Shown: positions 14,664 through 63,619 of the stretch, in pieces
How the letters are laid out: each line of letters starts with the position of its first letter
Numbering within the stretch: the stretch's first letter is position 1
Origin: an uncultured Eubacteriales bacterium
Lineage (GTDB): Bacteria > Actinomycetota > Coriobacteriia > Anaerosomatales > JAAXUF01
Assembly (NCBI GenBank): GCA_964541225.1
Contig: CAZIPN010000003.1
Location: 10,007-74,006 of the forward strand
Length of the DNA stretch: 64,000 nt
Reading direction: 5' to 3'
Notes under the pieces: model-generated
What the model saw: only the letters and a program-made list of their open reading frames with translations
What the model was told of the DNA's origin: nothing
Databases searched by the model: none
Program-made: the position numbers and the translations under genes

Positions 14664-14665
14664 GG

Positions 14666-18136: not shown

Positions 18137-18142
18137 TCCCTC

Positions 18143-22931: not shown

Positions 22932-23066
22932 GACCTCGCACCTCCTTCCCCTTTGTAGGGATAGCGTGGGCAACCTGATGCTGTCCACTTGTGACAACGT
23001 GTGTATCGGTCGACCTCTCGGCGACTTGAGCATTCTCGGCACATTTCACCAAAGAACGCGCTCGCA

Positions 23067-28010: not shown

Positions 28011-28027
28011 GCGGTCAGGCTCTTCCT

Positions 28028-30469: not shown

Positions 30470-30510
30470 TTAGGTATCCGCCCCATGGTGTGATGGAGAA
30501 TTCAAGGCCG

Positions 30511-36886: not shown

Positions 36887-36960
36887 GGGTCCTTCCTTCT
36901 CCTCTTCGACAATCGAGCCGGCCTGCCCCTCGTGAAGCGGCCACGCTGAGTGCTTTGGCA

Positions 36961-46007: not shown

Positions 46008-46601
46008 CTAGCGCGCAGCCCTTTGAACCTCGCGCTCAAGAAACGCGTAGTCAATCAGGCCGTGGTGCTTGTAGATGATGTATCCCTGGCCATCAGTGAG
46101 CACGATGAACGGAGTGAACGTGACCCGTATCGCCGGGTCGCGGGCAAGCTCCACTGCGGCAACCGCCGAGGCGTTCTTCGCGAACTCGGGACTGATCGAC
46201 ACGCTACCGTCTGCGTTCACTGTTGCGTACTTGCCGATGTCGTAGGACGCCAGATCCACCAGTCCGCGATTCTCGGCGCGAACCGCGTCAATGACGATGC
46301 GCACTTCTTTGCTCGTCTGCTGTGTGGAGTCGTAGAAGTAGATCAGCGTCGGCTGCTTGTCGACAGTTACCTTCTGCTTCAGGTCAGCAGGAATGGCGCT
46401 CCCTGTTGGAAATGGCGTGAAGGTCGAGCTCTCGTTCACCGAGCGATCATCGATGGCAGGCAGCGACGTAGAACCCGATCCGCTGGACGGAGCTGCCGAG
46501 GTGCTGCCGGTGGTCGTGCTGGTCGTTGCGGATCCGCCCCCGCACCCACCCAACGACAGCGCGAAAACGAGTGCGATTCCTGCTACGACGAGTCTGCGCA
46601 T
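46008..46601 (-). CDS. Hypothetical lipoprotein
   Basis: MRRLVVAGIALVFALSLGGC contains a lipobox (LSLGG|C). ATG at 46601 has GGAGGAAG upstream. I recognise no family. A thioredoxin-like fold is possible but no CxxC is present. Confidence 0.55.
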   Translation of the reverse strand: MRRLVVAGIALVFALSLGGCGGGSATTSTTTGSTSAAPSSGSGSTSLPAIDDRSVNESSTFTPFPTGSAIPADLKQKVTVDKQPTLIYFYDSTQQTSKEVRIVIDAVRAENRGLVDLASYDIGKYATVNADGSVSISPEFAKNASAVAAVELARDPAIRVTFTPFIVLTDGQGYIIYKHHGLIDYAFLEREVQRAAR

Positions 46602-46854
46602 GCTGCTTCCTCCACTGCTACGATGTGCGCTCCGCCTTGTCGTCACTCGGCATGGTGAACCCGCCTCAGCAGGTGGGTGCCCTCACGTCGGCTTCGAGCT
46701 TCCCTTTGACAGGGATACCTTTCCGCCTGGCAGATCTGGAGCTCCCGTTTAAGAAGTGTTGGTTCGACCGTTAGCGCCGAGTAACGACAAGGCGAAGCAT
46801 GTCTAGAGTGTAACTCCGCTCACGAGCAGCGCCAATACACTTTCGCCATGCCAC

Positions 46855-48624
46855 TCAATCGACGCGAACGTGCGCGTCCTTTAGTTGTCGCCCAGATACC
46901 GAGTCCGGGGCACCCGTCATTGGGTCGCCGCCTGACGACGTCTTGGGAAACGCAATCACGTCGCGAATGGAGCCAGCGCCCGCCAGCAGCATGACGAGAC
47001 GATCGAGACCCAAAGCGATCCCGCCATGCGGAGGAGCTCCAAACGACAGCGCCTCGAGCAGGAAGCCGAACTTCTCGCGCGCCTCCTCCTCACCCATGCC
47101 CATCAGGCGAAACACCCGCATCTGAAGCTCCGGCGTCGGGATACGCAGCGTTCCTCCACCGATCTCATAGCCGTTCATCACGAGGTCGTAGCTGTAGCCA
47201 CGTGCACTACCCGGCGCGGACTCGAGCGCGTCGACGTCCTCGGCGTAGGGCAGCATGAAGGGGTTGTGACTGGCGTCCCAGCGCTCGCTCTCCTCGTCCC
47301 ACTTGAAGAGCGGGAAGCCGAGTACCCACAGGGTATCGAAGCCCGTGCGCTCGATGCCGAGTTCGTCGGCAAGTGTGAGCCGCAGCACACCAAGCACTTC
47401 GTTGGCGACCTCGCGTTTGTCGGCGACCATGCAGACGAGGTCACCCGGTTCGACGCTCGCTGCCTCGCGCAGCGCGGTCATCTCGGCGTCGGTGAAGAAC
47501 TTCGCGACGGGGCTCTTGATCTCGCCGTCGCCCGTGAACGCCACCCACGCCAGGCCTTTGGCGCCAGCATCGATTGCTGCCTGATTGAGCGCATCAATCC
47601 GCCCGCGACTCCAGTCGCCCGCTCCCTTGGCGTTGATCGCCTTGACGGCGCCTCCGCTGGACAAGGCCCCGGCGAACACCTTGAACTCGCTTGCCGAGAA
47701 CACCGCCGAGACATCCACGAGCTCAAGACCAAAGCGCGTGTCTGGCCGATCGCTGCCAAAGCGCTCCATGGCCTCGTGATAGCTGATTCGCGGAAGCGGA
47801 ACCTGCAGATCGTGACCCGCCTGCGCCATGACCTCGCGCATGACGTCTTCCATCATCGCGAGCACATCGTCCTGGTCGACGAAGGACATCTCGATGTCGA
47901 CCTGCGTGAACTCGGGCTGGCGGTCGGCACGCAGATCCTCGTCGCGAAAGCAGCGCGCGATCTGGTAGTAGCGCTCAACACCGGCGACCATCAGCAACTG
48001 CTTGAAGAGCTGCGGCGACTGAGGCAGCGCGTAGAACTTCCCGGCGTTGAGGCGGCTCGGCACGATGAAGTCACGCGCGCCTTCCGGTGTGGACTTCGTG
48101 AGGATGGGCGTCTCAACTTCGAGAAAGCCCCGGTGCTCGAGCGACTTGCGAAACCGCTGTGTGACGCTGTCGCGCAGCACCAGCGCCGAGAGGACCTCGG
48201 GGCGCCGGATGTCGAGATAGCGCCAGCGAAGGCGCGTGAGCTCGTCGGTGTCGATCCCGGCTTCGATCTCAAACGGCGGCGTCTCGGCTCGGTTCAGTAC
48301 TTCGGCGGCGCTCACCACGATCTCAACCTCGCCGGTGGCCATGTTCGGATTGGCCGTGCCCTCGGGACGACGCCGCACGATCCCGACGAACTTGACCACC
48401 CACTCGGGGCGAATCGTCTCGGCAATCGCGAACGCTGCCTGCGCGGACTCCGGATCGAACGTGGATTGCACCACGCCAGTCCGATCGCGCACGTCAACGA
48501 AGATGAGTCCTCCGTGATCGCGACGCTTCGACACCCAGCCCGCGATCGTGACCTCCTGGCCGATGTCGTCGGCAGTCAGAGAACCGCACGTGTGAGATCG
48601 CATCGAGTAGCGGGCGTCGAGCAT
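46855..48624 (-). CDS. aspS: Aspartate--tRNA ligase
   Basis: 589 aa, canonical bacterial AspRS (MRSHTCG.L, class II motifs FRDEDLRADRQPEFTQ and GGIALGLDRL). The start is M1 (48624, GAGGA upstream) or M8 (48603). Confidence 0.97.
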   Translation of the reverse strand: MLDARYSMRSHTCGSLTADDIGQEVTIAGWVSKRRDHGGLIFVDVRDRTGVVQSTFDPESAQAAFAIAETIRPEWVVKFVGIVRRRPEGTANPNMATGEVEIVVSAAEVLNRAETPPFEIEAGIDTDELTRLRWRYLDIRRPEVLSALVLRDSVTQRFRKSLEHRGFLEVETPILTKSTPEGARDFIVPSRLNAGKFYALPQSPQLFKQLLMVAGVERYYQIARCFRDEDLRADRQPEFTQVDIEMSFVDQDDVLAMMEDVMREVMAQAGHDLQVPLPRISYHEAMERFGSDRPDTRFGLELVDVSAVFSASEFKVFAGALSSGGAVKAINAKGAGDWSRGRIDALNQAAIDAGAKGLAWVAFTGDGEIKSPVAKFFTDAEMTALREAASVEPGDLVCMVADKREVANEVLGVLRLTLADELGIERTGFDTLWVLGFPLFKWDEESERWDASHNPFMLPYAEDVDALESAPGSARGYSYDLVMNGYEIGGGTLRIPTPELQMRVFRLMGMGEEEAREKFGFLLEALSFGAPPHGGIALGLDRLVMLLAGAGSIRDVIAFPKTSSGGDPMTGAPDSVSGRQLKDAHVRVD

Positions 48625-48803
48625 CAGAAGTCCTCGTCGATCGAAGGCGGATTGGCTTCGCAGAGTATACGCGAACAGCCCGACTGCGGCTGGCCACTCT
48701 CCTCAGCGCAGACGCCTGGTCTCGCGAGACGTCATCCCCGACCTGCCGAACGTCCCCGGCCTGGCTGCAGCCGCACAAGCAAGCGCGCGCGAAGAGCAGC
48801 GCT

Positions 48804-50114
48804 CTACCTGCCGAGAACCTGCCGGATCTTGGCAACCGCCTCGCCAAGCGACACGCGCGCTTCGGCCTTGGTGACCATGTCGCGCAGCGTCGCCTCCCCT
48901 GCCGCATACTCGTCGGGCCCGATCACAAGCACCAGTCGGGCGCCCAACTTGTCGGCCTGCTTGAACTGCGACTTCAGCGTTCGTCCCTGATGATCGATCT
49001 CGGCGGCGATACCGGCATCTCGCAACTCGGCAGTGAGCTTGAAGGCGGCTGCCGCAAGCTGGATCGCCGCACTCGGATCGCCCACCGCCCGATCATCTAC
49101 GCGCGCAACGTAGACGTCCGCTCGCGAGGGCAGCTCCGGCTCGGCCCCGGCAGCTTCCATCGCCAGAAGCGTACGCTCGAACCCGAGCGCGAATCCGAGC
49201 CCCGGTGTGGCCGGTCCGCCGTACTCCTGCATCAAGCGGTCGTAGCGCCCACCGCCGCCGATGGCGTTCTGACTGCCGAGTCCCGCGTCGACCTGCACCT
49301 CAAAGACGGTGCGCGTGTAGTAGTCGAGTCCGCGCACAAGCGAAGGGTCCTCCACGTAGGGCAGCCCAAGATCGTCCAAGTGGACCTTGACCGCCGAGTA
49401 GTGCTCGGCGCATTCGTCGCACAGCTCATCGCGAAGAAGCGGTGCGCCCGCCATCACCTCTCGGCAACCCGGCCTCTTGCAGTCGAACGCACGCAGAGGG
49501 TTGGTATCGGCTCGACGATTGCACTCGTCGCATAGCGATTCGGAGTGCGCGTGGATGTAGGCTGCGACCTTGTCGCGATACGCAGGACGACACCTCTCGT
49601 CGCCCATCGAGTTCAGGAGCAGCCGCATGGAATCGGCCGGGATTCCGCACGCCTCGAAGAAGCGCCATAGAAGCGCGATCATCTCGGCATCCGCGCTTGG
49701 CTCGGCCGCGCCGAGAAGCTCAGCGCCGATCTGCCAGAACTGGCGCATCCGACCCTTCTGGGGCCGTTCGTAGCGAAACATCGGACCCGCGTAGTAGAGC
49801 TTGGCGACTGCACCATTGGCGGCCAGGCTGTGCTCGAGCGCAGCGCGAACGACGCTTGCGGTCCCTTCGGGTCGCAGCGTGAGCGAGCGCCCGGCTTTGT
49901 CCTCGAAGGTGTACATCTCCTTGGAAACGATGTCGGTCGCCTCGCCGATGCCGCGCGTGAATACCTCGGTGTGCTCGAAGAGCGGCGTGTAGATGGGCTG
50001 GTATCCGTATCGCCCGAAGAGCTCCGCAGCTGTGCGCAACAGGTGCTCCCACACCAACGCTGTTGCGGGAAGCATGTCTGCGGTGCCTTTGGGAGCGCGG
50101 GCATCGAAACTCAC
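48804..50114 (-). CDS. hisS: Histidine--tRNA ligase
   Basis: APKGTADMLP, the YAGPMFRYERPQKGR motif and GGGRYD are present. The start is set at the GTG at 50114 (VSFDARAPKGT). The track start at 50243 would overlap the cytochrome gene. Confidence 0.9.
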   Translation of the reverse strand: MSFDARAPKGTADMLPATALVWEHLLRTAAELFGRYGYQPIYTPLFEHTEVFTRGIGEATDIVSKEMYTFEDKAGRSLTLRPEGTASVVRAALEHSLAANGAVAKLYYAGPMFRYERPQKGRMRQFWQIGAELLGAAEPSADAEMIALLWRFFEACGIPADSMRLLLNSMGDERCRPAYRDKVAAYIHAHSESLCDECNRRADTNPLRAFDCKRPGCREVMAGAPLLRDELCDECAEHYSAVKVHLDDLGLPYVEDPSLVRGLDYYTRTVFEVQVDAGLGSQNAIGGGGRYDRLMQEYGGPATPGLGFALGFERTLLAMEAAGAEPELPSRADVYVARVDDRAVGDPSAAIQLAAAAFKLTAELRDAGIAAEIDHQGRTLKSQFKQADKLGARLVLVIGPDEYAAGEATLRDMVTKAEARVSLGEAVAKIRQVLGR

Positions 50115-50194: not shown

Positions 50195-52879
50195 TCAGTA
50201 CCACCAGGTGTACGTCTGCCCAGCGACGCTTGGTGTGATCCACATGCCGTAGGCACTGGCCTTCTCAACCACGTTGCCACCCGCGTCGTCAAGTTCACGT
50301 GAGTCGCACCACACCTGATACTGCTGCCCTATCGGAACGCGCACGTTCCAGTCGACAGCTCCCGGCGTGTCGCCGGCAAGGCTCGTGCTCGCGATCGACG
50401 CGCCGCTGGAGTCCAGGACGCTGAGTTGAGCCTTGGCTAGGCCCGTGGGCTCCCAGCGAAACGCGAGCGTGGCTTCAGTGTCCGCAGCCACTGTGAAGGT
50501 CGCGGTTTCGATCTGCTCGATGTTGCCCGCATTGTCTACCGACCAATACTCAAGCGTGTGCGTTGTCGCAGAGCTCACCGGCGGGGGCACCACCACGCTC
50601 GTGCTTTCGAGCGCCGCAGCGCCATCAAGCCGATAGTACGTCGCATTCACACCCGATCCGCCCGGGTTGTCCACTGCGACAAACGCGATGGTCGCCGTGC
50701 CAACATACGAGCTGAGCGCGTCGGTGACGGTGCTCGGCGCGGTCGCGTCCACTCCGGTGAGCATGCTCGCGGGCTGCACGACGGCACTGCCTGCGGTCGC
50801 GATCTGAGCATGGGGATCCCCGCCGCCATGGCAGTCCGTGCAGTCCTTCGTGGTGGGAACGCCGTCCGCATGGCACACGGCGCAGCTTGTGCGGACCGTG
50901 CTGGTGCTCTCGCTCGCGAGGACCACCTGTGCGGTTGATGTCGCGTCCACGTGCATGGACGCCAGGTCGCCCGAATGGCAGCCCGAGCCGCTCGTGCAAC
51001 TTGAGTTGTCGCCGAGGGGCGTGTGTGCCACGTCGATGTTGGCGTGCATCGGCGAAGTCGACGTCAGCGTGTGGCATCCAGCCTGCGCGCATGTGGTCGG
51101 ATCAAGTGCCGTCACTGTGTCGGCTGGCGACGGGTGGCACTCCGCACACCCGGCATCCGCTCCGGCTGAGCTGGACTTCGCATGCTCCGTAGCAAGATCC
51201 ACTGCGTGGCAGTCTGCACACGAATACGGACCATAGGTGGTCCCGTCGATGGATAGGGTGCTCGACAAGGGACTGAGTGTGTGGTCCGGTCCGGAGTATG
51301 AGTCGGCAGGATTGTGGACGTTGTGTCCGCCCGCGTCGTAGCTGTCACCATGACACGCGTAGCATGAGGTCGCGTCGCCCTTCTCGTGGCCAATCGTCGC
51401 CGATAGCTTCAGCGCACCTCCGCTTCTCGAAATCCCTTCGACCGTCGCGGTCGCCGACACGGGAGTGTAGGTCGTGTCTGTGCTGCTCCACCCCTCGCCG
51501 GTGTCAGCCGTCGTATGGCATGTCAGACAGAACTCGCGAACTCCCGCATCCGTGCTGGTTTCCAAGCTCGCACCGAGCTCATCTGAAAGCATCGAGCTGT
51601 TTGCGCGAGTCGAACCATGTGGGTTGTGGCAGTCGTAGCACGGCAGCGGAGAGCCGACCGGCAGAGTCCCCCCCGCAGTGACGATCCGGTGGCCTGCCGA
51701 GCTATCGGCTCCCGTGGCGAAGCGCTTGATATCGACGGTGGGGGTCGCGAACCCACTCGGCGTGACACCGCCGTGACACGCGAAACAGGAAGCAGCGTAC
51801 GTACCGTCGGCCTGATCGGACGCGAGTGTCGATGGGGTTGGCGGACGGTAGGCCGCCTTCAAGCCGTCGTACTTGTTGGGCCCGCGGTGCGCCGCATGAC
51901 AGTACAAGCAGTCACCCTCGGCACGCTTGACCGAAGCACCTGTCTCAACCGTCTGAGTCGATTCCGGGATCAGGCGATGTGCATTCGATGTGCTGGCATA
52001 GGCGTCTGGTCCGAGCCACGTCCCAGACACCGGATATCCGCTCGCATCACGCGACGGAGCGTCAGCGGAGGGGTAGTCGCTGCCGAACGCAGTGTTGGTG
52101 GCATCGTGGCAGGTTTCGCACCAGGCGGGGCCTGCCGCCGAGACAGTTGCGCTGCTGACATAGGCGGCCGACAGCATCGGGTTGTCGGCAGCTGAACCGT
52201 GCACCTGATGGCAGCTCGCGCAATCTTGGATAGATGACCCGGTGGTGCGCGACTCATCCATCGAGTGCCCGCTCGACAACCCGAAGGAGTCCACTGTGCC
52301 GGTCATGACATTTGCGGCGCCCCAAACCTTGCCGTCGTGGCAACCACGACACAGCGCGGTCGGATCGGGACTGCTTGATGAAAGCTCCGGCCTTCCAAGC
52401 ATCACCGTCGAACCATCGTGGGAAGTGTGGCACTCGACGCACACCGTCGAGTCCTTGCTCTCGTCAACGTGTGGCGTCGCTCCCCAGCTTGAGGTCACGG
52501 GACCACACTGCGCATAGGCGGTTTGATGCCCGTCCGCCAAGACGGCGGTCACGCGGAAGTGGTAGGCCATGCCGGCCAGGCCATCTACGAAATCGTAGTG
52601 GGTCACATTGGAAAGGCCAACGTAGCGATACGGTCCCTCGACGCTTGTCGCCTCGAAGATGAAGTAGCCCTTCGGCGAGACACCGCTCGGCTTGGTCCAG
52701 GACAGCGAGGCGATGATCGGTTGTGTTCCCTGGGTGGCAACCAAGTCGGACGGAGCATCCCCGTTCGCGGCAAAGACGAGTTTCGGTACGGCAAGAGCGG
52801 CGAGTGCGACAACGCATGCGGCCGCTGCCACAAGAGTTCTACGTGCGCCGATTCTCACGTTTGCGATCCGTCGGACCAA
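50195..52879 (-). CDS. Secreted multihaem c-type cytochrome with FN3-like N-terminal and Ig-like C-terminal modules
   Basis: 894 aa. Signal/anchor is RRTLVAAAACVVALAALAVPKLVFA. An FN3-like block follows (LSWTKPSGVSPKGYFIFEATSVEGPYRYVG...YHFRVTAV). There are 13 CxxCH motifs (CVECH, CRGCH, CASCH, CETCH, CLYCH, CFACH, CYDCH, CLTCH, CYACH, CADCH, CAECH, CAVCH, CTDCH), plus CAQAGCH and CTSGSGCH. The C-terminal module contains GSGVNATYYRLDG...HTLEYWSVDNAGNIE. TTG start has a GGGAGAGGG RBS. Confidence 0.85.
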   Translation of the reverse strand: MVRRIANVRIGARRTLVAAAACVVALAALAVPKLVFAANGDAPSDLVATQGTQPIIASLSWTKPSGVSPKGYFIFEATSVEGPYRYVGLSNVTHYDFVDGLAGMAYHFRVTAVLADGHQTAYAQCGPVTSSWGATPHVDESKDSTVCVECHTSHDGSTVMLGRPELSSSSPDPTALCRGCHDGKVWGAANVMTGTVDSFGLSSGHSMDESRTTGSSIQDCASCHQVHGSAADNPMLSAAYVSSATVSAAGPAWCETCHDATNTAFGSDYPSADAPSRDASGYPVSGTWLGPDAYASTSNAHRLIPESTQTVETGASVKRAEGDCLYCHAAHRGPNKYDGLKAAYRPPTPSTLASDQADGTYAASCFACHGGVTPSGFATPTVDIKRFATGADSSAGHRIVTAGGTLPVGSPLPCYDCHNPHGSTRANSSMLSDELGASLETSTDAGVREFCLTCHTTADTGEGWSSTDTTYTPVSATATVEGISRSGGALKLSATIGHEKGDATSCYACHGDSYDAGGHNVHNPADSYSGPDHTLSPLSSTLSIDGTTYGPYSCADCHAVDLATEHAKSSSAGADAGCAECHPSPADTVTALDPTTCAQAGCHTLTSTSPMHANIDVAHTPLGDNSSCTSGSGCHSGDLASMHVDATSTAQVVLASESTSTVRTSCAVCHADGVPTTKDCTDCHGGGDPHAQIATAGSAVVQPASMLTGVDATAPSTVTDALSSYVGTATIAFVAVDNPGGSGVNATYYRLDGAAALESTSVVVPPPVSSATTHTLEYWSVDNAGNIEQIETATFTVAADTEATLAFRWEPTGLAKAQLSVLDSSGASIASTSLAGDTPGAVDWNVRVPIGQQYQVWCDSRELDDAGGNVVEKASAYGMWITPSVAGQTYTWWY

Positions 52880-52957
52880 GCGTTGCCCTCTCCCATGTGC
52901 TCCCGACGCGACGTCTGCCAGAAGTTCTTGTGCGATGCCGGCCAGGGAAAAGACCCT

Positions 52958-52987
52958 CTCTCTAGAGAGGATGACGCGATTATATCA
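52958..52987 (-). promoter_or_regulatory. Candidate extended -10 promoter plus 12-bp perfect palindrome (operator?) upstream of the cytochrome gene
   Basis: The minus strand reads TGaTATAAT (52979..52987). Nine nt further downstream is CTCTCTAGAGAG (52958..52969), which would cover roughly +3 to +15. The surrounding intergenic region is AT-richer than the rest of the window. Confidence 0.4.
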
Positions 52988-53042
52988 CCGAAATAGTCTC
53001 AATATGTCGCGCATTCATGGAGAACTAGAGTGTTTCAGTCGC

Positions 53043-53081
53043 AAAAAGCTTGCCCATACGCGAACGTGCCTGAGGGCAAGC
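53043..53081 (-). terminator. Rho-independent terminator after relA/MBL-hydrolase genes
   Basis: GCTTGCCC-N18-GGGCAAGC forms an 8-bp stem. It is followed directly on the minus strand by UUUUUG, and starts 19 nt after the stop at 53100. Confidence 0.6.
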
Positions 53082-53099
53082 CTTCGTGCGAACGCGACC

Positions 53100-53738
53100 C
53101 TACGCGCGAGGAAAGAACGGATTCAGCTGCCGCTCTCGACCGATCGTCGTGTCAGGGCCATGGCCCGGATGCACGATCGTGTCGGCAGGCAGCCCGACCA
53201 GCTTGCTCGAGATCGACGTCGACAGCGCCCTTCCGTCGCCTCCGGGCAGATCGGTGCGCCCTACGCTGCCCGCGAACAGCGTGTCGCCCGAGAACAGTCG
53301 CGGCGGTGCCCCCGTGGGTTCCTCGGCGAACAGACAGATGCTGCCAGGAGTATGGCCGGGCGTGTGCAAGACCGTGAGTCGGAGCTGACCCGCCTCAAGG
53401 TGGTCGCCATCGTGCAGGAGGTGATCCGGTTGAGGTGCCGTCTCGTCAAACCCGAACATCGCCCCGCCTGTTGCAACTGGATCGCCGAGATCGGCAGAGT
53501 CATCGGCATGCGCGTACAGGGGAGCATCGGTAGCAGCCTTCAACTCCCGCACCGCACCGATATGATCGAAGTGCTTGTGCGTCAGAACGATGGCCGCGAG
53601 GCGTCGCTCCCCTACTGCGTCGAGAATGGCCGAGGCGTCGGCGGCCGGGTCCAGCACCACGGCAGGCCCTCCCACATCGTCCCTGACGATCCAGCAGTTG
53701 GCCTCAAGCGGACCCAACACGAGGCGTTGTACGAACAT
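53100..53738 (-). CDS. MBL-fold metallo-hydrolase (GloB-like)
   Basis: LTHKHFDHIG (HxHxDH motif), HTPGHTPGS and DTLFAGSVGRTD. 1-nt overlap with the relA stop. Confidence 0.85.
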   Translation of the reverse strand: MFVQRLVLGPLEANCWIVRDDVGGPAVVLDPAADASAILDAVGERRLAAIVLTHKHFDHIGAVRELKAATDAPLYAHADDSADLGDPVATGGAMFGFDETAPQPDHLLHDGDHLEAGQLRLTVLHTPGHTPGSICLFAEEPTGAPPRLFSGDTLFAGSVGRTDLPGGDGRALSTSISSKLVGLPADTIVHPGHGPDTTIGRERQLNPFFPRA

Positions 53739-55954
53739 CAGGTTTCACTCCCGCGTTTCTGACCCGCCTCGCCGGGCATCATTCGGCGAGCCTCGAACAC
53801 ACCTTCAACCCCACGCATTTCGCGCAGTATGCCGTCGAGCCTCGACAGGTCCCCTAGCTCGAACAAGAAGCGCATGTCCACAAGACCGTCCCTGTGAGTT
53901 GTGGTGGAGGACGCCAGGATGTTCACTCCCTGTTCGGCAAGTGCAGATGTCACATCCTGCAGAAGACGCAGCCTGTCCATGGCTTCAACGAAGATCTCGA
54001 CCTGGAACGTGGTGTCCTTGCCGAGATCCCACTCCACGTCGATTATTCGCTCCGGTGAGGACAGCAGCTCACGCGCGTTTGGACAGTCCTTCCGGTGCAC
54101 CGAGACCCCGCGTCCGCGGGTCACAAACCCGATGATATGGTCACCCGGAACCGGATGGCAGCAGTTCGCCAACCTGATCAGCGCGTCGTCGAGTCCCTTG
54201 ACCTTGACACCCCCGGCGGCCCGCCGGCGTTTGCTGCGTGGGGCAAGCATGGGTTTGTCGAGCGTGAACTCCTCGTGAGCTGGCTCTGGCTCGACCCCCT
54301 CGCCCTCCTTGGCCATAAGCTTGAGCAGCTTCGTGCCAACATGTTTCGCCGAGACCTTGCCAGCACCTATCGCCGCGATTATGTCGTCGGCATGCGCGTA
54401 GTTCATCTCATGCGACACCGTGCCGATTGCCTTCTCGGCGGTCTTCGACCCAATGCCGAGACCGTGCTTGCGCATCACCTTCGACAGCTCATCACGACCG
54501 CGGACGAGGTCATCCTCACGAGTGACCTTGCTGAAGTAGCTGCGGATCTTGCTCTTCGCCGATGACGTTCGGACGATGTTGAGCCAGTCGCGCGAGGGAC
54601 TCGCGTTCTTGTTGGTGAGGATCTCTACGCGATCGCCCATCTGCAGTTCATAGCCGAGCGGGACGATGGCACCGTTGACCTTTGCGCCCACGCAGTGATT
54701 CCCGACCTCAGTGTGGATCGCGTAGGCAAAATCGATGGGCGTCGAGCCTCGCTTCAAGCTGATAACGTCGCCCTTCGGGGAGAAGACGAACACCTCCTCC
54801 TCGAACAGGTCGATCTTGAGCGCTTCCATGAACTCACGTGGATCCTTGAGTTCTGTCTGCCACTCCAGCATCTGGCGCAGCCATGCTAGGCGCTCATCGA
54901 AGCTGTCTTCGCCGCGAACGCCCTCTTTGTAGCGCCAGTGTGCCGCAACGCCGTACTCTGCCGTCCTGTGCATCTCCTCGCTGCGAATCTGGATCTCAAG
55001 CGGCGCGCCCGTTGGCCCTATGACCGTCGTGTGCAGTGACTGGTACATGTTGAACTTGGGCATCGCAACGTAGTCTTTAAACCGCCCGGGCACCGGCTTC
55101 CAGATTGAGTGCACAGTGCCCAACGCGCCGTAGCAATCCTTGACCGAATCCACCAGCACTCGCAGCGCAATGAGATCGTAGATCTCGTTGAAGTCTTTGC
55201 CTTTGCGCGTCATCTTCTGATAGACGCTGTACAAATGCTTGGGTCGGCCGGAGATTCGCGCCTGAATACCGACGGCAGCAAGCTCATCGGTGAGCTCGTC
55301 GATCACACGCTGCATGTATTCTTCGCGCGCCTGTCGGCTCTCGGCGACCATGCGCGACACCTGATGGAACTTGTGCGGCTCGAGGTAGTAGAAAGACAGA
55401 TCCTCGAGTTCCCACTTGATGCTGGAGATGCCGAGCCGATGCGCCAACGGCGCGTAGATCTCCATCGTCTCGCGAGCCTTGTCGATCCGTCGGTCCTCAG
55501 GCAGCGCCGCGAGCGTGCGCATGTTGTGCAGCCGGTCGGCGAGCTTGATGAGGATGACGCGGATGTCTTTCGCCATGGCGATGAGCATCTTGCGCAAGTT
55601 GTTGGATTGCGCCTCGGACAGCGATTCGAACTCGATCTGCCCGAGCTTGGTGACCCCATCGACAAGTTCGGTGACCTCATCACCAAAACGCTTGCGCACC
55701 TCGTCAAGCGTCACTCCGGAATCCTCAACAACGTCATGAAGCAGCGCAGCCTTGAGCGTCGGCGTGTCCATGTGGAGTTCAGCGAGAATGAGCGCGACCT
55801 CGATGGGATGATTGACGAACGCCTCGCCGCTCTTGCGAGTTTGCCCTGCGTGGGATTGGACCGCGAAATCGTACGCGTCATCCAGACCGGTCAGATCGGC
55901 GTCAGGGTTGTACGCGAGGACCTGCGCCTCGATCTGCTCAAGAGTCGCGGACAT
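53738..55954 (-). CDS. relA: Bifunctional (p)ppGpp synthetase/hydrolase (RelA/SpoT homolog)
   Basis: 738 aa with an HD domain (HPIEVALILAEL, LLHDVVEDS), synthetase domain (YRSLHTTV-type: MYQSLHTTVIGP), TGS and ACT domains. Confidence 0.95.
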   Translation of the reverse strand: MSATLEQIEAQVLAYNPDADLTGLDDAYDFAVQSHAGQTRKSGEAFVNHPIEVALILAELHMDTPTLKAALLHDVVEDSGVTLDEVRKRFGDEVTELVDGVTKLGQIEFESLSEAQSNNLRKMLIAMAKDIRVILIKLADRLHNMRTLAALPEDRRIDKARETMEIYAPLAHRLGISSIKWELEDLSFYYLEPHKFHQVSRMVAESRQAREEYMQRVIDELTDELAAVGIQARISGRPKHLYSVYQKMTRKGKDFNEIYDLIALRVLVDSVKDCYGALGTVHSIWKPVPGRFKDYVAMPKFNMYQSLHTTVIGPTGAPLEIQIRSEEMHRTAEYGVAAHWRYKEGVRGEDSFDERLAWLRQMLEWQTELKDPREFMEALKIDLFEEEVFVFSPKGDVISLKRGSTPIDFAYAIHTEVGNHCVGAKVNGAIVPLGYELQMGDRVEILTNKNASPSRDWLNIVRTSSAKSKIRSYFSKVTREDDLVRGRDELSKVMRKHGLGIGSKTAEKAIGTVSHEMNYAHADDIIAAIGAGKVSAKHVGTKLLKLMAKEGEGVEPEPAHEEFTLDKPMLAPRSKRRRAAGGVKVKGLDDALIRLANCCHPVPGDHIIGFVTRGRGVSVHRKDCPNARELLSSPERIIDVEWDLGKDTTFQVEIFVEAMDRLRLLQDVTSALAEQGVNILASSTTTHRDGLVDMRFLFELGDLSRLDGILREMRGVEGVFEARRMMPGEAGQKRGSET

Positions 55955-56008: not shown

Positions 56009-58861
56009 TCATTCACACACAACAGTGTACGTGACGGTCGTGGCATACGTCCCAGGATCGAAGGCCCACGGCGGTGTCAACACGAAATCGAATCGATAGT
56101 CGTGCTCCCACACATGGCCATCGCCTGCCGAGGTGTCTAGCTTGTACGGCGCGACCGTGAACGGCTGTTCCGACTGCACTATCCACCCGCTTGTGCTGTA
56201 CGTGAGCGTGTCGACTGGCATCGTCGGGGTGACCGAGCCGGAATCGGTGTTCGTGAAGTCCTCGGCACTGCACCACAGGTCATAGGTCAAGTCGCCAACA
56301 CCGCCGACCAGAACCGTCGTCGCGCTCGCCACCGTCGACGACTCGCCAGGATTGATTGCCCCCATGTAGACGGTATCCGCGGACAAGGACATCCATAGCG
56401 CGGCGTCTGGCGTCGTACCAACAACGGTGACACTGTGTGCCGAGGTAAGACCCGCGTGGTTGTAGGCCACGATGTAGTACGAGTAGCTGGTTCCTGGCGT
56501 CAGGCTTGTGTCCGTGTATGCAAGCGCTGTGGTGGTTGTCACCAACGATCCATCGCGATACACCGCATAGTAGGAGACGCCAGACTGAGCATCAGTCGAT
56601 GGCGCCCACGAGACCTCTATGCTCGTGGTGCTCACTGCGCTCGCGCCAACCGACGTGGGAATCGACGGCGGTGTCGTGTCGAGCTGCAGGATGGCCGTTT
56701 GCGCTGTCTCGATGTGCCCGACATTGTCGACCGAGTAGAAATTGAGCGTGTGAGTGCCATCGACCCCTGGGGGGAACGGCGCAGTGTAGTTGGCCCACGG
56801 GCTGCCGTCGTATCGGTACCTCGTGTAGGCGACACCTGAGCCGGCATCCGTCGCGGTGATGCTTATGCTCGGCAGCGAACTCGTCCATCCGACCGGGATG
56901 TTGCATGTGCTGATGGGCGGGAAGCTCTCAATGAGGAACGGTCCTATGCTCGTAGCAGTTGGGTTCCAGTTGTCGCGCCCGTCGACCGCTCGGACGTTGA
57001 AGTACCAATGGCCATCGCCTGGCGCGGCGGACGTGCTGTTGGGTGTAGGGACGACACCAACGATCGAGATCTCGTCCCAGTCGACGTACTCCGTCCACCC
57101 CCGCACATTCGCTCCGAAGCGAACCATGTAGGCGCTGCTCAAGTTCGGCAGGGCGACGCTGTGCTGCGTCCAGTTCTGCGCAGGGGGTCTTCCCGATACG
57201 TAATACAGGTCGGTCCACGTTGCTCCACCGTCAGTCGAATAGCTCACCGACTCGAAGTTGGCGTTGCGATTGAATGCACTGTGACTGTCCCACCACGTCA
57301 GCGTCGCGGACTGGAAGGCGGACAGGTCATACGTCTTGTAGAAGTAGTCCTCTCGGTACGTGTTGCTGTTGGCCCACACCTCGGCGGCGTTTGGAGCAAG
57401 GTGATAGCGTCCTGCGGCGCCGGTGATGCGCAGGAAGCCGTCGTTCGAAGCCGGCTCCGTCCAGTCCGCCGGGAACGAGGCGCCGTCAAACGCCTGGTTC
57501 TCCTCGGTCACCGAAGCGGTGACGCCCGGTGTGTAGGTGACCGTGTCGGTGGCGGTGTCTGGCAGCCCCGGCGCGTCTCTCGTCCAGCTGAAGCTGTACC
57601 CGGCGAGGCCACTCCCGGCATCAGTGGAGACACTCCATGCCGCTGTCATGGTTGCAACGCCAGACCATACATTCGGTACATGAGTTGGCGACCACGCCCA
57701 TGGCTGAGTGGGAGGCGTCGTGTCAACGACCGTGATCGTCTGCGTTGCCACCGTTGTCGCACCGTCGTCGTCAGTCGCCGTCCAAGTGACCTCAGTGCTG
57801 CCAAACGGCAGCAGACTCCCGGCGACGGGGTTCCGCGTGAACGAGACGACCGTGCCGTCGCCGTCGGTGGCCTGCGCGTCCGTGGCGCCGCTGTAGCCTG
57901 TGTAGCCGGTGGTCGAGTTGGCTTCGAGAGTCTTCGTCGTGAAGTCCAAACTGATAGTGGGTGGCACGTTCACAACCGTGCCGTTGCGCACTTGCCATAT
58001 GTAGCGCCCGAGGACGCCACCCGAGTCCAAGGAGTTCTGAATGAGCGATGTCGAAGAACTAGAAGAATCGAGAAGGGCACTCGGGCCACCCATCGGTGCG
58101 AGGGAGCCGGCCAGTTCGTAGGACCCGTCGGCGCCCTGCGCAGTCGACCAGCCGACAACGGCACGACCAGGCTGCCCACCGGTCGCAGTCCCCGTGTCCC
58201 AATTGATGGTGTTGTAGTTGAACATGATGTCGAAGTTGCCGGCCCCCGTGTCCGAGCGGTCAACAAGCACCATCTGAAACGAGTTCGTGTTCGCTGACGC
58301 CCACCCGTTGTTGTACGACATCACGTCAATCCAGTTGACGATGAAGCAGTTGTGTCCCTCGAACGTTGGTGGAGTCGCCGTCCCGCTGTAGGTGAGCTGG
58401 CCAGAACCACCGTTGCTCGTATCCACATCGGCGAAGAAGGGCGCGATGATTGGCAGATACGGCCGCGGCCACGCGTAGTACCGCGTGGTGGTCAGGTCGT
58501 GCGACTGGTAGGTTTCCGGATAGTTCGAGTCGCAATATGGATCCACGAACGTACAGTTGCCGTTCATGTTGATGTAGATCTGGCTGTAGGGCGTCCCCAG
58601 CCAGTTCATTGCGAACGGCAGATTGACGACTAGGTTGTTCGAGTCATCTCCACGGGCGACCGTGTTGTCTGCGTAGTGTGTCGGCGTGATGATCGCATCC
58701 GCATCCGCGAACGCCGAAACCGGCGAGACAGCGCACCAGGTCAGAAGAACCAGGAACGCCAACAAGCCCACGAGTACCCGTCCTCGCGGGCTGGCGGCAG
58801 GCCTAGACGCTTGCACGCCCAGAACCGGCCCTTCTCTAATGCTGGCTCTGCGCTCCTTCAT
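56009..58861 (-). CDS. Secreted multidomain surface protein: NIDO-like + HYR-like + jelly-roll + Ig-like + FN3
   Basis: Signal peptide is LVGLLAFLVLLTWCAVSPVSAFA|DA. NIDO hallmarks are IYINMNGNCTF, LPIIAPFFADVDT, TNSFQMVL, NYNTINWDTG and GRYIWQVRNG. The HYR-like block is PPTISLDF...FGSTEVTWTATDDDGATTVATQTITVVD. FN3 is IEVSWAPSTDAQSGVSYYAVYRDG...YSYYIVAYN. The start is set at MKERRAS (58861, GGAGAA upstream). Confidence 0.7.
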   Translation of the reverse strand: MKERRASIREGPVLGVQASRPAASPRGRVLVGLLAFLVLLTWCAVSPVSAFADADAIITPTHYADNTVARGDDSNNLVVNLPFAMNWLGTPYSQIYINMNGNCTFVDPYCDSNYPETYQSHDLTTTRYYAWPRPYLPIIAPFFADVDTSNGGSGQLTYSGTATPPTFEGHNCFIVNWIDVMSYNNGWASANTNSFQMVLVDRSDTGAGNFDIMFNYNTINWDTGTATGGQPGRAVVGWSTAQGADGSYELAGSLAPMGGPSALLDSSSSSTSLIQNSLDSGGVLGRYIWQVRNGTVVNVPPTISLDFTTKTLEANSTTGYTGYSGATDAQATDGDGTVVSFTRNPVAGSLLPFGSTEVTWTATDDDGATTVATQTITVVDTTPPTQPWAWSPTHVPNVWSGVATMTAAWSVSTDAGSGLAGYSFSWTRDAPGLPDTATDTVTYTPGVTASVTEENQAFDGASFPADWTEPASNDGFLRITGAAGRYHLAPNAAEVWANSNTYREDYFYKTYDLSAFQSATLTWWDSHSAFNRNANFESVSYSTDGGATWTDLYYVSGRPPAQNWTQHSVALPNLSSAYMVRFGANVRGWTEYVDWDEISIVGVVPTPNSTSAAPGDGHWYFNVRAVDGRDNWNPTATSIGPFLIESFPPISTCNIPVGWTSSLPSISITATDAGSGVAYTRYRYDGSPWANYTAPFPPGVDGTHTLNFYSVDNVGHIETAQTAILQLDTTPPSIPTSVGASAVSTTSIEVSWAPSTDAQSGVSYYAVYRDGSLVTTTTALAYTDTSLTPGTSYSYYIVAYNHAGLTSAHSVTVVGTTPDAALWMSLSADTVYMGAINPGESSTVASATTVLVGGVGDLTYDLWCSAEDFTNTDSGSVTPTMPVDTLTYSTSGWIVQSEQPFTVAPYKLDTSAGDGHVWEHDYRFDFVLTPPWAFDPGTYATTVTYTVVCE

Positions 58862-59007
58862 GTGCGTTTCTCCGTCCGGCACAACGGCGTCACGTCGCGT
58901 GTTCGTGTCACCAAGCACCGGGGTCCGGCGGATAACGCTTGTCCACCTAAGAATCGGCCGAAATCGATACCTCCTGAAGGTCGGGGCGCTTCCCGTGCAC
59001 TTCAACA

Positions 59008-62000
59008 TCAGACGGCTGGGAGGATCGGGCGGTTGAATCGGGCAAGCAGCTCATCGGCCTCGGCTGACAGAACCCAAGCCTTGAACCCCCGGAACTCCGC
59101 TATCTCATCCTTGCCTTCAGCGTATCGAAGGCTCTCGTCGAGGTTCACTTTCTGTTCGCTGGGCGTAAACGAGAGTCTCCGGTAGGAGCCGTGCCCTTCT
59201 CCAGCGACGAATCCCAGGTCACGCAGTATGCCGAGTGCCGAAGAGACCCCTCTCTCGTCGAGTTGGCAACTCCGCCGAACTCGCTTGCAGCGCTCGGCGA
59301 GTTCGGCGTTTGTGATCTCGAACAGGCGCCCCTCAGCTGCTGCGACATCGCGCAGCACGACGTAGAGCGCCGCCATGTCGTCGCGCTCGGGCGCCAGCGA
59401 GGACAAGATCGACTCGTTGATGCGCGCGTCCTTCCCACCGAAAAGCAAATGAATTCGCGCGACCGCACCGTCTCGGCCAGCTCGGCCGGACATCTGATTG
59501 AACTCGACACTGCTAAACGGCATGTGAAAGAGCACGACGTTGCGAATGTCGGGGACATTGACGCCCTCGCCAAACGCGCTCGTCGCGATGATTACGCTGA
59601 TCTCGCCCGCACGAAAAGCCCTCTCCACCGCATGGCGCATCGACCGACCCATACCGCCGTTGTAAAACGCTGTACGCATCGCAAGGTGCGGAACATGCTT
59701 GCGAAGTCGCCGTGCGAGTCGAACGGTCTGTTCGCGGGAGTTCACATAGACAACCGTCTTCTCTCCACGCGAGACGATCTCCTCGACGTACGCTTCTCGG
59801 TTCGCGACATCTCTGCGATCCTCGACCACCAGATTCTCTCGCACGGTCGGATCGAGAACGACCGCCGATATCTTCAATGAGGATCGGATCGCCTGCGCCG
59901 CAGCATCGTCCGCAGTCGCCGTGACGGCGAGAACCGTCGGGTTGCCCAGGGGCTCGAGTGTCTCGCCCAGTCGAGCGTACGCGGGCCGGTTGCCTGCGCG
60001 CGACAATCCTACGTGATGCGCCTCATCGATCACGAGGAAACCGACTCTCCCAGACTCGGCAAAACGCCCCGCGTAGAGGTGCAAGAACTCTGGCGTCGTG
60101 AGCGCGACGTCTAGAGTACCGTCACGCAAGTCGGCAAATGCTTGATCGCGTTCCGCTTGGCTGGATTCGCCGGTAATCGTCCGAACGGTGAGGCCGACCT
60201 CGGCGAAATCCTCCTCAAGGTGGTGCGCCTGGTCCGACACGAGTGCTCGCAACGGGTACACGAAGACACTTGCCCGCGCATGACGCAGCGCGATGCGAGC
60301 CGCGTGAAGATGGAAGATCAGTGACTTGCCGCGCCCCGTAGCCATGACGGTCAGCGTGGACTCGCCAGCTGCAAGATGGGAAAGCGCTTGCGTCTGCGCG
60401 ACGTGGAGGCTCCGCTCACCAAGGAAGCAGCGCACGAGTTCGGCATCAAGCGCCGCAGCGTCTAGCGCTGCAAGTTCCGCCCGCCGTCTCGCCCGCACGG
60501 CAGCACGCTCATCTTGAGTGTCGGCGGTGTCTCGACGGGTGAGAAGAACGTTGACCCCCAAAGACTGCCCGTCCGCTCCTCCTGTGACCTCCGTGACCTC
60601 AACGTCGTAGCCAACACCAGCGTCGATGGTCGGAGCGAGTGCCGCCGCCAGACGACGGTTCAGAAAGCCAACTTGATCCCCTTGGGGATCAAAGAGGGCA
60701 CACGCGTTGGTGTCGAATTGGTTCTCTGGTTGCCGTTCGAGTCGAAGTGGCGTTCCTGCCGAGACACGCACAAGCACCTCTTGACGGCCTTCGAACGTCA
60801 CACCAGCGAGCTTGGTGTGAAATGATGGCGCGTCGCCGATACCTGCGTACTCTTCGCGCGCCAGGATTTCATCGGCACGCGAGAACAGATCTTCGATCAG
60901 GTCGTGAGCTGGCGCGTCTTCTGAGGGCTCGTGCGCCACCGCATCCTCAATCCGCATCTGCACACGCCTGCGTCCACGCCACTCATCGACCGAGACGGAA
61001 AATGCCAAGTCCACCGCCGCCTCGTGTCCAGCCATCCGATCAATCTCGGGACACCGAAACGCAATGGCTTGCACGCTGACCGCCCCATCAAAGGCGGTGA
61101 ACCTCAGGTGGTTCGCCAGCTTGCCGACGCGCTGTCGACCGTTCATGAAGACTCCGCCGACGGCAAGAACTGGTCGGCGATTGCCATGCCCGAACGGCTC
61201 CAGTTGGGAGAGTTCTGTCGCCATCTCCACGCCGATGTCCGAGAGATCAACAAGCGCATCGACGCTGCGCTCGACGCGGAACTGCTCGGCAGGTAGCGCA
61301 TCGAGATGCTTGAGAAGATGTTCGGTGAACCGGTCGAGGTTCTCGGCAGGTAGCGCACAACCGACGGCTGCGGCATGCCCGCCAAAACGCGTAAGTACAT
61401 CCGAGCAGGACTCAAGCGCCCGGAAGAGATCAACGCTGCCCACAGACCTCCCGCTGCCTGAGGCGACCCCGTCATCGATGGCAAAGAGCAGCACCGGAAC
61501 CTTGAACCGCGCTGCCAGCCGAGATGCCACAATGCCCTTCACACCCTCGTGCCAGCCTTCTCCGGCCAGAACCAGCGCGCGCTGGCCGGAGTAGATACGG
61601 TCAGCCATGGCAGAAGCCGCCTCGCTCAGGTCAGCTTCCGTGGCCTGTCGTGTGCGATTGAGTTCATCGAGCGACCTGGAGAGCGACTCGGCGAGGACCG
61701 GATCATCCGTGAGCAGCAAGTCCAACGCGACCTGAGGATCAGCCATGCGACCAGCGGCGTTCATCCGGGGCGCGAGCGCGAAAGCCACTGAGTCCGTGGT
61801 GAATGAGTCCAGAGCGGTACCGGCCACTGCCGCCAATGCGGCGATCGCCACTCTTGGTTGCATGCGCATGCGCGCCACCCCGTCGGCAACCAATGCGCGA
61901 TTCTCAGATGTCAGCGGGACTATGTCAGCGACGGTACCGAGCGTCGCCAGATCCGTTAGATCTCGCCACACCTCGGGAAAACCAAGCCGCTCGCCTACAG

Positions 62001-62634: not shown

Positions 62635-62707
62635 GGATGCATAGTAGCCGAGGGGGCTGACACAAGAGTGCCAGCCCCGCAGGACGCTTCCGCTGCGGGC
62701 ACGTCGC

Positions 62708-63619
62708 CTACGACGCGTTCGCGTACTTCTTGGCGAGCGCCTTGTACTTTGGCTCGGTTTCTTTCCAGATGGCAAAGATGGGCGCGGCAACCCCGATGGA
62801 CGAATAGGCTCCGGACGCCAGACCAATCACAAGCGCCAGCGCGTAGTCCTTGAGCGTCACTCCGCCGAAGATCAGCAGTACGACGACGGGAATCAGCGAC
62901 GTCAGCGACGTGTTTATGGATCGCATGAGCACCTGGTTGACCGACTCGTTCGCCATGCTCATGAAGGACTGCTTCACCAGCCCTGCCGAGTTCTCCTTCA
63001 TGCGATGGAACACGACGATCGTGTCGTAGAGCGAGTATCCGAGAATCGCCAGGAGCGCAGCCACGACGTTCGGCGAGACTTCCCATCCAACCAGAGCGTA
63101 GAGTCCGAGCGTGATCAAGATGTCGTGGACGAGCGCGACGATCGCGGTCACGGACATCTTGTATTCGAATCGGATCGACACGTACAGCAGAATCGCCAGG
63201 ATCGAAACCGCGAGCGCCACCAGCGAGCTGCTGGTGATGTTCTTGCCCCACTCCGGACCAATGGTCGTGACCTGGAAGCCGTCCGAAGGAAGCCCCACCT
63301 CGCTAGAGGCCTTCGCGGCCGCGGTGTTGGCGATCGCCGCACTCGTCTCACTACTTCGGACGATGTAGCCGCGCACGCCTCTGACAGTCGACTGCTGAAC
63401 CTGCACATTGGCAAGCCCCGCCTTCTTGAAGGCCTGACTCATCTGCGCCTGTGTGACACTGCCGGACTTGGAGACATTGACGACCGTTCCGCCTTCGAAT
63501 TCAACTCCGAACTTCAACCCACGAACAGCGAGGGCACCGATGGCCACGACAATGAGAACAGCGGAGACAATGAACATGATGTTGCGATTGCCCATGAAGT
63601 TGACGTTGAACTTATGCAT
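62708..63619 (-). CDS. secF: Protein translocase subunit SecF
   Basis: MHKFNVNFMGNRNIMFIVSAVLIVVAIGAL, GGT domain and C-terminal TM bundle fit the SecF pattern. 8-nt overlap with the secD end. Confidence 0.9.
   Translation of the reverse strand: MHKFNVNFMGNRNIMFIVSAVLIVVAIGALAVRGLKFGVEFEGGTVVNVSKSGSVTQAQMSQAFKKAGLANVQVQQSTVRGVRGYIVRSSETSAAIANTAAAKASSEVGLPSDGFQVTTIGPEWGKNITSSSLVALAVSILAILLYVSIRFEYKMSVTAIVALVHDILITLGLYALVGWEVSPNVVAALLAILGYSLYDTIVVFHRMKENSAGLVKQSFMSMANESVNQVLMRSINTSLTSLIPVVVLLIFGGVTLKDYALALVIGLASGAYSSIGVAAPIFAIWKETEPKYKALAKKYANAS

Follow-up and report, generated by a model that had tools for sequence, protein, structure and literature searches.

A gene on the minus strand of a 64,000-nucleotide (nt) stretch from an uncultured Eubacteriales bacterium (GenBank assembly GCA_964541225.1, contig CAZIPN010000003.1, positions 10,007 to 74,006), referred to here as the window, encodes a multihaem cytochrome c that we propose to act in extracellular electron transfer (EET) as an electron wire, either secreted or associated with the wall. 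We put the probability of this reading at about 0.6. The open reading frame (ORF) spans positions 50195-52879 of the window, and its product of 894 amino acids (aa) carries 13 CxxCH haem-binding motifs and two variant ones. Multihaem cytochromes of the Anaerosomatales are already published, and homologs of the window protein are annotated generically. What is added here is an architecture in which an FN3 domain, a nonahaem core and c7-like units follow one another, a conserved but size-variable cytochrome island in the relA-hisS-aspS neighbourhood, and a variable spacing of the CxnCH motifs. A cytochrome-based respiratory lifestyle, published for the order, is supported for the window as well, which adds detail rather than surprise.

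Haem motifs and domain architecture

The assignment of the gene draws on the ORF itself, the motif count, Pfam matches and homologs. The ORF starts with TTG, 6 nt downstream of a Shine-Dalgarno sequence (GGGAGAGGG) rated good, and all genes identified around it are also on the minus strand, to which the coordinates of its parts and flanks given below refer. A count by regular expression on the minus-strand product reproduced the motif numbers reported in the initial annotation of this DNA, with CxxCH at residues 147, 177, 220, 254, 324, 365, 414, 451, 506, 554, 578, 666 and 680, CAQAGCH (Cx4CH) at residue 597 and CTSGSGCH (Cx5CH) at residue 628. The CxxCHxxH form, of which several cases had been mentioned, is found at four sites (147, 220, 324 and 414), and 30 of the 33 cysteines of the protein lie inside haem motifs. 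Elsewhere in the 64 kb window, frame segments of 100 aa or more contain at most one CxxCH each, so the motif count of the cytochrome is far beyond chance. Both Paired_CXXCH_1 (59.5 bits, cut-off 20.6) and Cytochrome_C7 (50.5 bits, cut-off 24.8) of the Pfam database score above their thresholds, and the protein contains no CxxCK.

The best conserved part of the protein is a nonahaem core (residues 134-526; 51302-52480), delimited by alignments and by an AlphaFold2 (AF2) model, with nine CxxCH motifs and conserved distal histidines. Conservation of the haem motifs in orthologs, on which the initial annotation had made its proposal depend, was found for the core: in an alignment of 31 sequences all nine CxxCH motifs are invariant, as are the non-motif histidines 154, 205, 227, 301, 331, 397, 421, 498 and 522. 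H137 is also at least 90% conserved, giving ten conserved non-motif histidines for nine core haems. The nine invariant histidines amount to one extra histidine for each core haem, the feature expected of the bis-His multihaem class, to which the core would belong on these alignments. Exactly nine motifs were found within the core module in 106 of 121 homologs, the core hidden Markov model (HMM) matches the cytochrome at 7e-183, and the Cys, His, Gly and Pro residues that are invariant in the family are all present. When AF2 was given the 121-sequence alignment, the core was modelled with a predicted local distance difference test (pLDDT) score mostly above 90 and a predicted template modelling (pTM) score of 0.73, while the trihaem units described next were still poor; with 31 sequences the pLDDT of the haem region was below 50.

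Two c7-like trihaem units follow the core. Unit 1 (residues 532-618; 51026-51286) contains CADCH, CAECH and CAQAGCH and was recognised from an internal repeat and a match to structure 3ov0; unit 2 (residues 619-700; 50780-51025), recognised from the same repeat, contains CTSGSGCH, CAVCH and CTDCH. When the two units are aligned with each other as an internal repeat, CTSGSGCH stands opposite CADCH, each then followed by xxDLAxxH, and CAQAGCH stands opposite CTDCH. Outside the motifs, three histidines are found per unit (533, 566 and 612 in the first, 619, 643 and 690 in the second). The family profile matches the c7 polymer GSU1996 (3ov0) with an E-value of 4e-14, and the 16-haem HmcA is matched as well.

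The two variant motifs fall into these units, Cx4CH at residues 597-603 (51071-51091) and Cx5CH at residues 628-635 (50975-50998), and both have counterparts in homologs. Where the window protein has Cx4CH, the same spacing is found in its closest homologs (CVQGGCH, CAQGGCH, CVTAGCH and others), and CxxCH or Cx6CH in more distant ones. In the Cx5CH column homologs show CxxCH, Cx4CH (CTSSGCH, CATSGCH and others) or Cx10CH, and CH and the downstream L...H are always kept. Among 232 family proteins we counted 3884 CxnCH motifs with n = 2, 190 with n = 4, 61 with n = 6, 32 with n = 3, 31 with n = 5 (in 13 proteins) and 17 with n = 10; a residue-shuffle control gave about 10-13 per value of n. The variant spacings described in a recent survey are CX3CH, CX4CH, CX11CH, CX15CH and CX17CH, and CX5CH, CX6CH and CX10CH are missing from its list (PMC11492766). 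The family therefore offers candidate new haem-binding spacings. Judged from the alignments, both variant sites of the window protein are homologous to haem sites and are conserved as a class. Because they align to canonical sites both in the internal repeat and in homologs, we read the protein as carrying 15 bis-His haems, a number that is probable, with occupancy and ligation predicted from sequence. The lack of CxxCK in the protein, together with a candidate distal histidine for every haem, is what electron-transfer haems, as opposed to catalytic ones, typically show.

The haem-binding region is preceded by export and beta-sandwich elements. Residues 1-37 (52769-52879) form a predicted Sec-type signal peptide with a basic n-region, a 17-residue hydrophobic core and a predicted cleavage site PKLVFA|ANG, and the PKLVFA|G/A cleavage motif is kept in the closest homologs; the peptide is accordingly read as cleaved, at the level of a prediction. 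Tat export by way of the RR pair at residues 14-15 was considered and rejected as unlikely, because the pair is not conserved in the closest homologs. The N-terminal signal and the lack of an anchor motif noted initially both stand: the cytochrome has no hydrophobic segment beyond its N-terminus and contains neither a lipobox nor an LPXTG motif.

An FN3 domain (residues 41-130; 52490-52759) directly precedes the core. On the single sequence the Pfam fn3 model stays below threshold (18.9 bits versus 25). The family profile matches titin and Fn3 structures in this region with E-values of 4e-14 to 1e-9, the family FN3 HMM matches the domain at 2.5e-35, and AF2 models it as a seven-strand sandwich with pLDDT above 90, bearing out the FN3-like module proposed from the sequence at first reading. 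C-terminal to the haem units, residues 709-801 (50477-50755) form an OmpL47-type, Ig-like beta domain, identified by the NCBIfam model NF047446 (52 bits over residues 725-797, cut-off 40), by AF2 (pLDDT above 90) and by BLASTP against the neighbouring surface protein. More specifically, residues 730-797 are 41% identical (E 2e-7) to residues 714-776 of that 999-aa protein, which itself scores 59.7 bits against NF047446, in line with the earlier suggestion of a C-terminal module shared by the two proteins. The last 93 residues (802-894; 50198-50476) are beta-rich and probably represent a second, divergent Ig-like domain; this assignment is tentative, the match to the family Ig-repeat HMM being weak (7.9e-6) and AF2 confidence low.

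The cytochrome family and its genomic slot

Searches at E <= 1e-3 returned 138 homologs of the cytochrome, the best of them 52% identical. Those with a name are labelled "cytochrome c3 family protein" and come from metagenome-assembled genomes (MAGs) of Coriobacteriia and Actinomycetes and from Anaerosoma tenue. In the representative genomes of GTDB the nearest relatives are at most 46% identical and belong to MAGs of Coriobacteriia, Actinomycetota and Anaerosomatales, including bins derived from groundwater; weaker, partial matches extend to Zixibacteria, Ignavibacteria, Eisenbacteria and others. An exhaustive HMMER search with the core against 1.84 billion (1.84e9) proteins gave only 273 representative clusters, and many of the matches are very long proteins (2000-4600 aa) in which up to 11 stretches are matched. 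The number of CxxCH motifs in the family has a median of 15 and a maximum of 76, the latter in a protein of 4475 aa with 32 further variant motifs. The window cytochrome is among the smallest complete members, and proteins P0016 (902 aa) and P0006 (866 aa) resemble it in size and architecture. The signal peptide, the domains and the Anaerosomatales-type relatives agree with the proposal that a monoderm host secretes a multihaem cytochrome furnished with FN3 and Ig-like modules.

Within the window the gene order is secF, a recJ-HIRAN-helicase fusion, a NIDO/FN3 protein, relA, an MBL-fold hydrolase, the cytochrome, hisS, aspS, a 212-aa protein and rarA. The upstream flank of the cytochrome consists of relA (53738-55954) and the hydrolase gene (53100-53738), called in the window and found in related loci (53100-55954 in all), and the downstream flank of hisS (48804-50114, GTG start) and aspS (46855-48624), called in the window (46855-50114). 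We compared this slot across genomes by tblastn of the window neighbours against fetched loci, and by means of gene-called contigs. Seven loci (L008, L017, L034, L035, L003, L007 and L018) have a homologous cytochrome beside relA and/or the MBL gene upstream, and/or hisS-aspS downstream, and both flanks were found at L017 and L034. Full-length relA matches in related loci are 72-75% identical. Three further loci vary the arrangement: L080 reads relA-MBL, three further cytochromes with NHL and TPR genes, P0016 and hisS-aspS; L083 reads relA-MBL-crcB, cytochromes with unknown genes, P0007 and hisS-aspS; and in L081 (977-8496) the order is MBL-hisS-P0001-aspS, so that the closest homolog, P0001, lies between hisS and aspS, inside the usual hisS-aspS operon. 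Altogether, the slot in the relA-MBL/hisS-aspS neighbourhood holds an FN3-nonahaem cytochrome in at least ten related genomes, and an FN3 domain directly before the nonahaem core, which defines the family, is present in all locus orthologs and in the window protein.

The occupants of the slot differ widely in size. Compared with 894 aa and 13 CxxCH (plus two variant motifs) in the window, the cytochrome has 1156 aa and 19 CxxCH in L017, 1187 aa and 22 in L007, 1237 aa and 22 in L008, 2653 aa and 33 in L018, and 5121 aa and 75 in L035, where a single ORF on the plus strand (6305-21667) contains the nonahaem module at least six times over. In the larger orthologs the core is repeated (L035, L018) and the N-terminus is long and extended, and L035 and L003 have arrays of Ig-like domains. 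Besides the L035 ORF, proteins P0178, P0144 and P0121 are giants of the same family. In a neighbour-joining tree of core modules, which is indicative only, the FN3-linked cores resident at the locus fall in one FN3-bearing clade, and the window core groups with those of L081 and L080.

The GC content of the cytochrome gene and its GC content at third codon positions (GC3, 0.73) resemble those of its neighbours. As at least ten relatives have the slot occupied and GC3 is neighbour-like, we reject a recent horizontal insertion; on gene order and composition, the slot is a lineage-conserved, variable and rearranging cytochrome island within a housekeeping cluster. The initial annotation had described the gene as an insertion that interrupts the relA-hisS-aspS backbone. 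Its position between relA-MBL and hisS-aspS is as described, and the notion of an insertion does not fit a slot filled in at least ten genomes.

Local signals around the gene are as follows. The intergenic region upstream of the cytochrome has a GC content of 0.55 versus 0.62 for the window, and an extended -10 element is present, consistent with the AT-richer promoter region that had been proposed for the gene. A terminator-like hairpin with a T-run (53041-53084), recognised from the sequence and its RNA fold and a consensus-type prediction, would close the relA-MBL unit. The predicted extended -10 promoter-like element, TGATATAAT (52979-52987), is not conserved upstream of orthologs. Directly downstream of it lies a near-perfect palindrome, CCTCTCTAGAGAGAGG, followed by the T-run TCTTTTCC (52945-52972). 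A hairpin in the 5' untranslated region, an attenuator or an operator are candidate roles of the palindrome; a conserved operator was rejected, the palindrome being absent upstream of orthologs. No terminator-like site was found in the 80-nt gap between the cytochrome and hisS, and the cytochrome may be co-transcribed with hisS-aspS. An Rfam scan of the whole window gave no matches, hence neither a T-box nor another leader close to hisS or the cytochrome gene.

Genes for haem attachment were sought in the window by Pfam scans, by tblastn with ResB and CcsA of A. tenue and by a scan for the WWD motif; in agreement with what had been noted before, none of the three found a ResB, CcsA or Ccm gene. 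P0120, a member of the family with 1172 aa in A. tenue, is directly followed downstream by ResB, CcsA and a Rex-like regulator, indicating that the lineage has System II. The paralogous A. tenue cluster (L082:5074-15684) comprises an NHL-repeat protein, two cytochromes, an NHL protein, the 1172-aa member, ResB, CcsA and the Rex-like regulator. NHL and TPR proteins accompany cytochromes in L080 too.

Of the other genes of the window, those next to the slot are partly kept in relatives. The neighbouring surface protein (ORF 56009-59008, minus strand, 999 aa) has a Nidogen-like (NIDO) domain, the OmpL47-type module (56681-56869) and FN3; its only hydrophobic segment lies at about residues 71-103, and its real start therefore probably lies well past the first ATG. 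Orthologs stand between recJ and relA in L008 and L034 and are absent in L017 and L080. Next to it, 59008-62826 (minus strand) encodes a 1272-aa fusion of RecJ (DHH, DHHA1, RecJ_OB) with HIRAN and a DEAD/Helicase_C helicase. The fusion is kept in relatives, with 1215 aa in L080 and about 60-63% identity in L008, L017, L034 and L035. On the other side of the slot, between aspS and rarA, a conserved protein of 207-212 aa without a family match (46008-46646, minus strand) occupies the same place in L034, L080 and L081.

Farther away, a type IV pilus locus (10149-33883, minus strand) encodes PilO, PilM, prepilin peptidase, PilC and two PilB-type ATPases, with N_methyl pilin-like genes at 11579-12265 and 22545-23042. 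The locus is interleaved with the shikimate-pathway genes aroQ, aroB, aroK, aroC and aroE and contains large ORFs without a family match (10149-11564 and 12222-14192). Between the two PilB-type ATPase genes (27483-31131, minus strand) lie genes for a Ras-like small GTPase (175 aa), a DUF4388 protein (813 aa) and a Roadblock/LC7 protein (206 aa), a trio resembling an MglA/MglB-type polarity module; the lineage has been described as non-motile. At 35882-37452 (minus strand) a Fur-family regulator gene (36961-37452) stands directly upstream of an ABC-transporter ATPase gene, beside two ORFs without a family match (34426-35885); together these genes may form a metal-uptake unit.

Proposed electron-transfer role and its alternatives

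In the reading that we favour, the cytochrome would be exported by Sec, processed by signal-peptide cleavage and left without a covalent anchor, in an OPB41/Anaerosomatales-like Coriobacteriia host with a Gram-positive wall. The mature protein would consist, in this order, of the FN3 domain, the nonahaem core, the two c7-like trihaem units, the OmpL47-type Ig-like domain and the C-terminal beta domain. Up to 15 low-spin bis-His haems would line up in one continuous electron-hopping chain. From a place in or on the cell wall, as we infer, the protein would pass electrons of respiration from carriers near the membrane on to extracellular acceptors, for example Fe(III) minerals or partner cells, or work in reverse, and the beta sandwiches at its two ends would provide spacing or attachment. 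The predicted steps of this scheme are haem binding at all 15 sites, bis-His ligation, the location in the wall, and the direction and partners of electron flow. Observed are the intact gene and its motif numbers, the conserved motifs and distal histidines, the order of domains, the secretion signal, the lineage with its conserved slot, and System II genes in a relative in culture. Published work on the Anaerosomatales (OPB41) describes a Gram-positive wall, pili-like appendages and 17-18 multihaem cytochromes per genome, and Parvivirga hydrogeniphila, an isolate of the order, is an obligate Fe(III) reducer (PMC9686372).

Several observations weigh against this proposal. A. tenue shows no Fe(III) reduction (PMC9686372) though its genome carries family members, so the presence of the family is no predictor of metal reduction. 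Quinones were not detected in cultured relatives, and the 64 kb window encodes neither a partner cytochrome nor a quinol dehydrogenase nor any maturation protein. Two further links drawn in the initial annotation lack support in that form: the one to the adhesin-like neighbour comes down to one generic surface-protein domain, and the type IV pilus locus is indeed present, at about 10-33 kb, and its connection to a cytochrome more than 17 kb away is circumstantial.

We weighed four other explanations, all of which we judge less likely than the electron wire proposed above. The one that survives best keeps the wire and turns its direction inward, so that the cytochrome would accept electrons from a syntrophic partner, a cathode or Fe(II) minerals. 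The sequence contains no feature that would set the direction, and bis-His multihaem wires are reversible in principle, as known from Mtr/Mto-type systems. Relatives grow lithotrophically (PMC9686372), but those in culture oxidise H2 or formate and reduce Fe(III) or sulfur compounds, and are not Fe(II) oxidisers. No oxidative electron sink is encoded nearby. We regard a dedicated inward flow as unlikely.

A polymerising nanowire subunit like OmcS, OmcE or OmcZ, stacked head to tail and perhaps forming the pili-like appendages seen in Anaerosomatales on ferrihydrite, seems to us improbable. The weak local similarity to OmcE (7tfs, E 0.0017-0.006) that would suggest it covers a short stretch of about 40 residues and is not significant. 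Given that H137 is at least 90% conserved besides the nine invariant histidines, the core has a spare histidine (ten for nine haems) that could ligate the haem of a neighbouring subunit; known subunits, however, lack flanking FN3 or Ig-like domains, and such domains would hinder head-to-tail stacking. The family moreover lengthens by tandem duplication within one polypeptide, to at least 75 haems, a route other than polymerisation. In Parvivirga, thin appendages appear only with ferrihydrite (PMC9686372), but appendages are explicable by the type IV pilus locus of the window.

We think it improbable too, and slightly more so, that the protein is an extracytoplasmic redox enzyme, that is, a terminal reductase whose substrate is soluble, for instance an oxyanion of sulfur or nitrogen. 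A. tenue does reduce sulfur compounds, and NrfA-, HAO- and OTR-type enzymes appear as weak profile matches (E 5e-3 to 1e-7). These matches, however, are confined to CxxCH-rich stretches, and with a core-only profile the NrfA-type enzymes score weaker than OmcE. Neither CxxCK nor another catalytic-haem signature is present in the protein, every haem has a candidate distal histidine, and FN3/Ig flanks with an extreme variation of haem number among orthologs are unlike a fixed active site. Finally, the gene could be imagined to be what is left of a larger ancestral cytochrome, decaying or silent within the housekeeping cluster, from the small size of the protein next to same-slot orthologs with 19-75 CxxCH, its one unusual Cx5CH site and the lack of partner cytochromes nearby. 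This is very improbable given an intact 894-codon ORF in which no family-invariant Cys, His, Gly or Pro residue is lost, a promoter-like element and a good Shine-Dalgarno sequence, a neighbour-like GC3, and homologs of similar size in P0016 and P0006.

Going back to the electron wire, a broader and more speculative proposal joins several of its features. The family would supply, at one slot in OPB41-like Coriobacteriia, a single-polypeptide haem wire whose length is tunable from 15 to at least 75 haems by tandem duplication of nonahaem and trihaem modules, with previously undescribed haem attachment at CX5CH, CX6CH and CX10CH, in positions homologous to those of ordinary CXXCH motifs. We hold this combination to be possible, though doubtful as a whole. 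If it were true, the length of the haem chain would set how far electrons reach through or beyond the Gram-positive wall, and an unusually tolerant System II haem lyase would be implied. The passage of electrons across a thick Gram-positive wall is known from few proteins of Firmicutes, for example OcwA and OmhA. The window gene represents a different, structurally unsolved cytochrome family whose named relatives are MAGs of Coriobacteriia and Actinomycetota from groundwater and similar samples. As its haem number ranges from 15 to above 75 while the housekeeping locus stays the same, the family provides a natural series on haem-chain length and wall crossing.

Comparison with known systems

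A sequence search of the PDB with the single protein returned no relative, and Foldseek of the core model against the PDB gave no match at E <= 0.001, a null result that says little because multihaem folds have little secondary structure. With a core-only profile the best PDB match is chain A of 6R2Q (E 7.9e-6), reached through CxxCH(N)PHGS-type motifs; from its length of 333 residues we take this chain to be MtrA, the label in the file being different. Membership of the MtrA/DmsE family was rejected, since the NCBIfam model DmsE (TIGR03508) scores 27.9 bits on the cytochrome against a cut-off of 192.2 and the similarity is at the level of motifs. The decahaem MtrA/DmsE proteins of MtrCAB-type systems resemble the cytochrome in being all-bis-His and wire-like, both predicted here, and poor in secondary structure. 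They carry ten haems in about 300 aa, whereas the core here has nine and is fused to FN3, c7 and Ig domains. Unlike MtrCAB, the window protein has no porin partner, and its host, being monoderm, has no outer membrane.

The dodecahaem c7 polymer GSU1996 of Geobacter sulfurreducens (3OV0) also consists of tandem trihaem c7-like units, a likeness limited to residues 532-700 of the window protein. There the units number two only, are joined to an unrelated nonahaem core and include the Cx4CH and Cx5CH sites. GSU1996 itself is periplasmic, in a diderm. The nanowires OmcS, OmcE and OmcZ are extracellular multihaem electron conductors, as the window protein would be, and have a different domain architecture.

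Counterparts in proposed role are found among Gram-positives. The PDB matches with E-values of up to 10, obtained with the single sequence and with two family profiles, included no OcwA entry; for one of the profiles the best 60 of 117 matches were considered. OcwA has nine haems of mixed coordination and is related to the NrfA/OTR type, whereas all haems here appear to be bis-His. An SLH domain such as OmhA carries was not found in the window cytochrome. The role proposed here is the same as that of OcwA of Thermincola potens and OmhA of Carboxydothermus ferrireducens, namely wall-exposed multihaem EET (PMC6703420, PMC7829351).

The closest likeness is to the "cytochrome c3 family" genes of OPB41/Anaerosomatales, including cytochromes of A. 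tenue and P. hydrogeniphila (PMC9686372), whose cores are 35-60% identical. They share with the window protein the nine CxxCH motifs, the distal histidines and recurring FN3 and Ig-like domains, often in the same relA-MBL/hisS-aspS slot. Against a best match of 52%, the window protein differs from these relatives in being among the shortest complete versions, with 15 sites versus up to at least 76, and in having Cx5CH where theirs is CxxCH, Cx4CH or Cx10CH.

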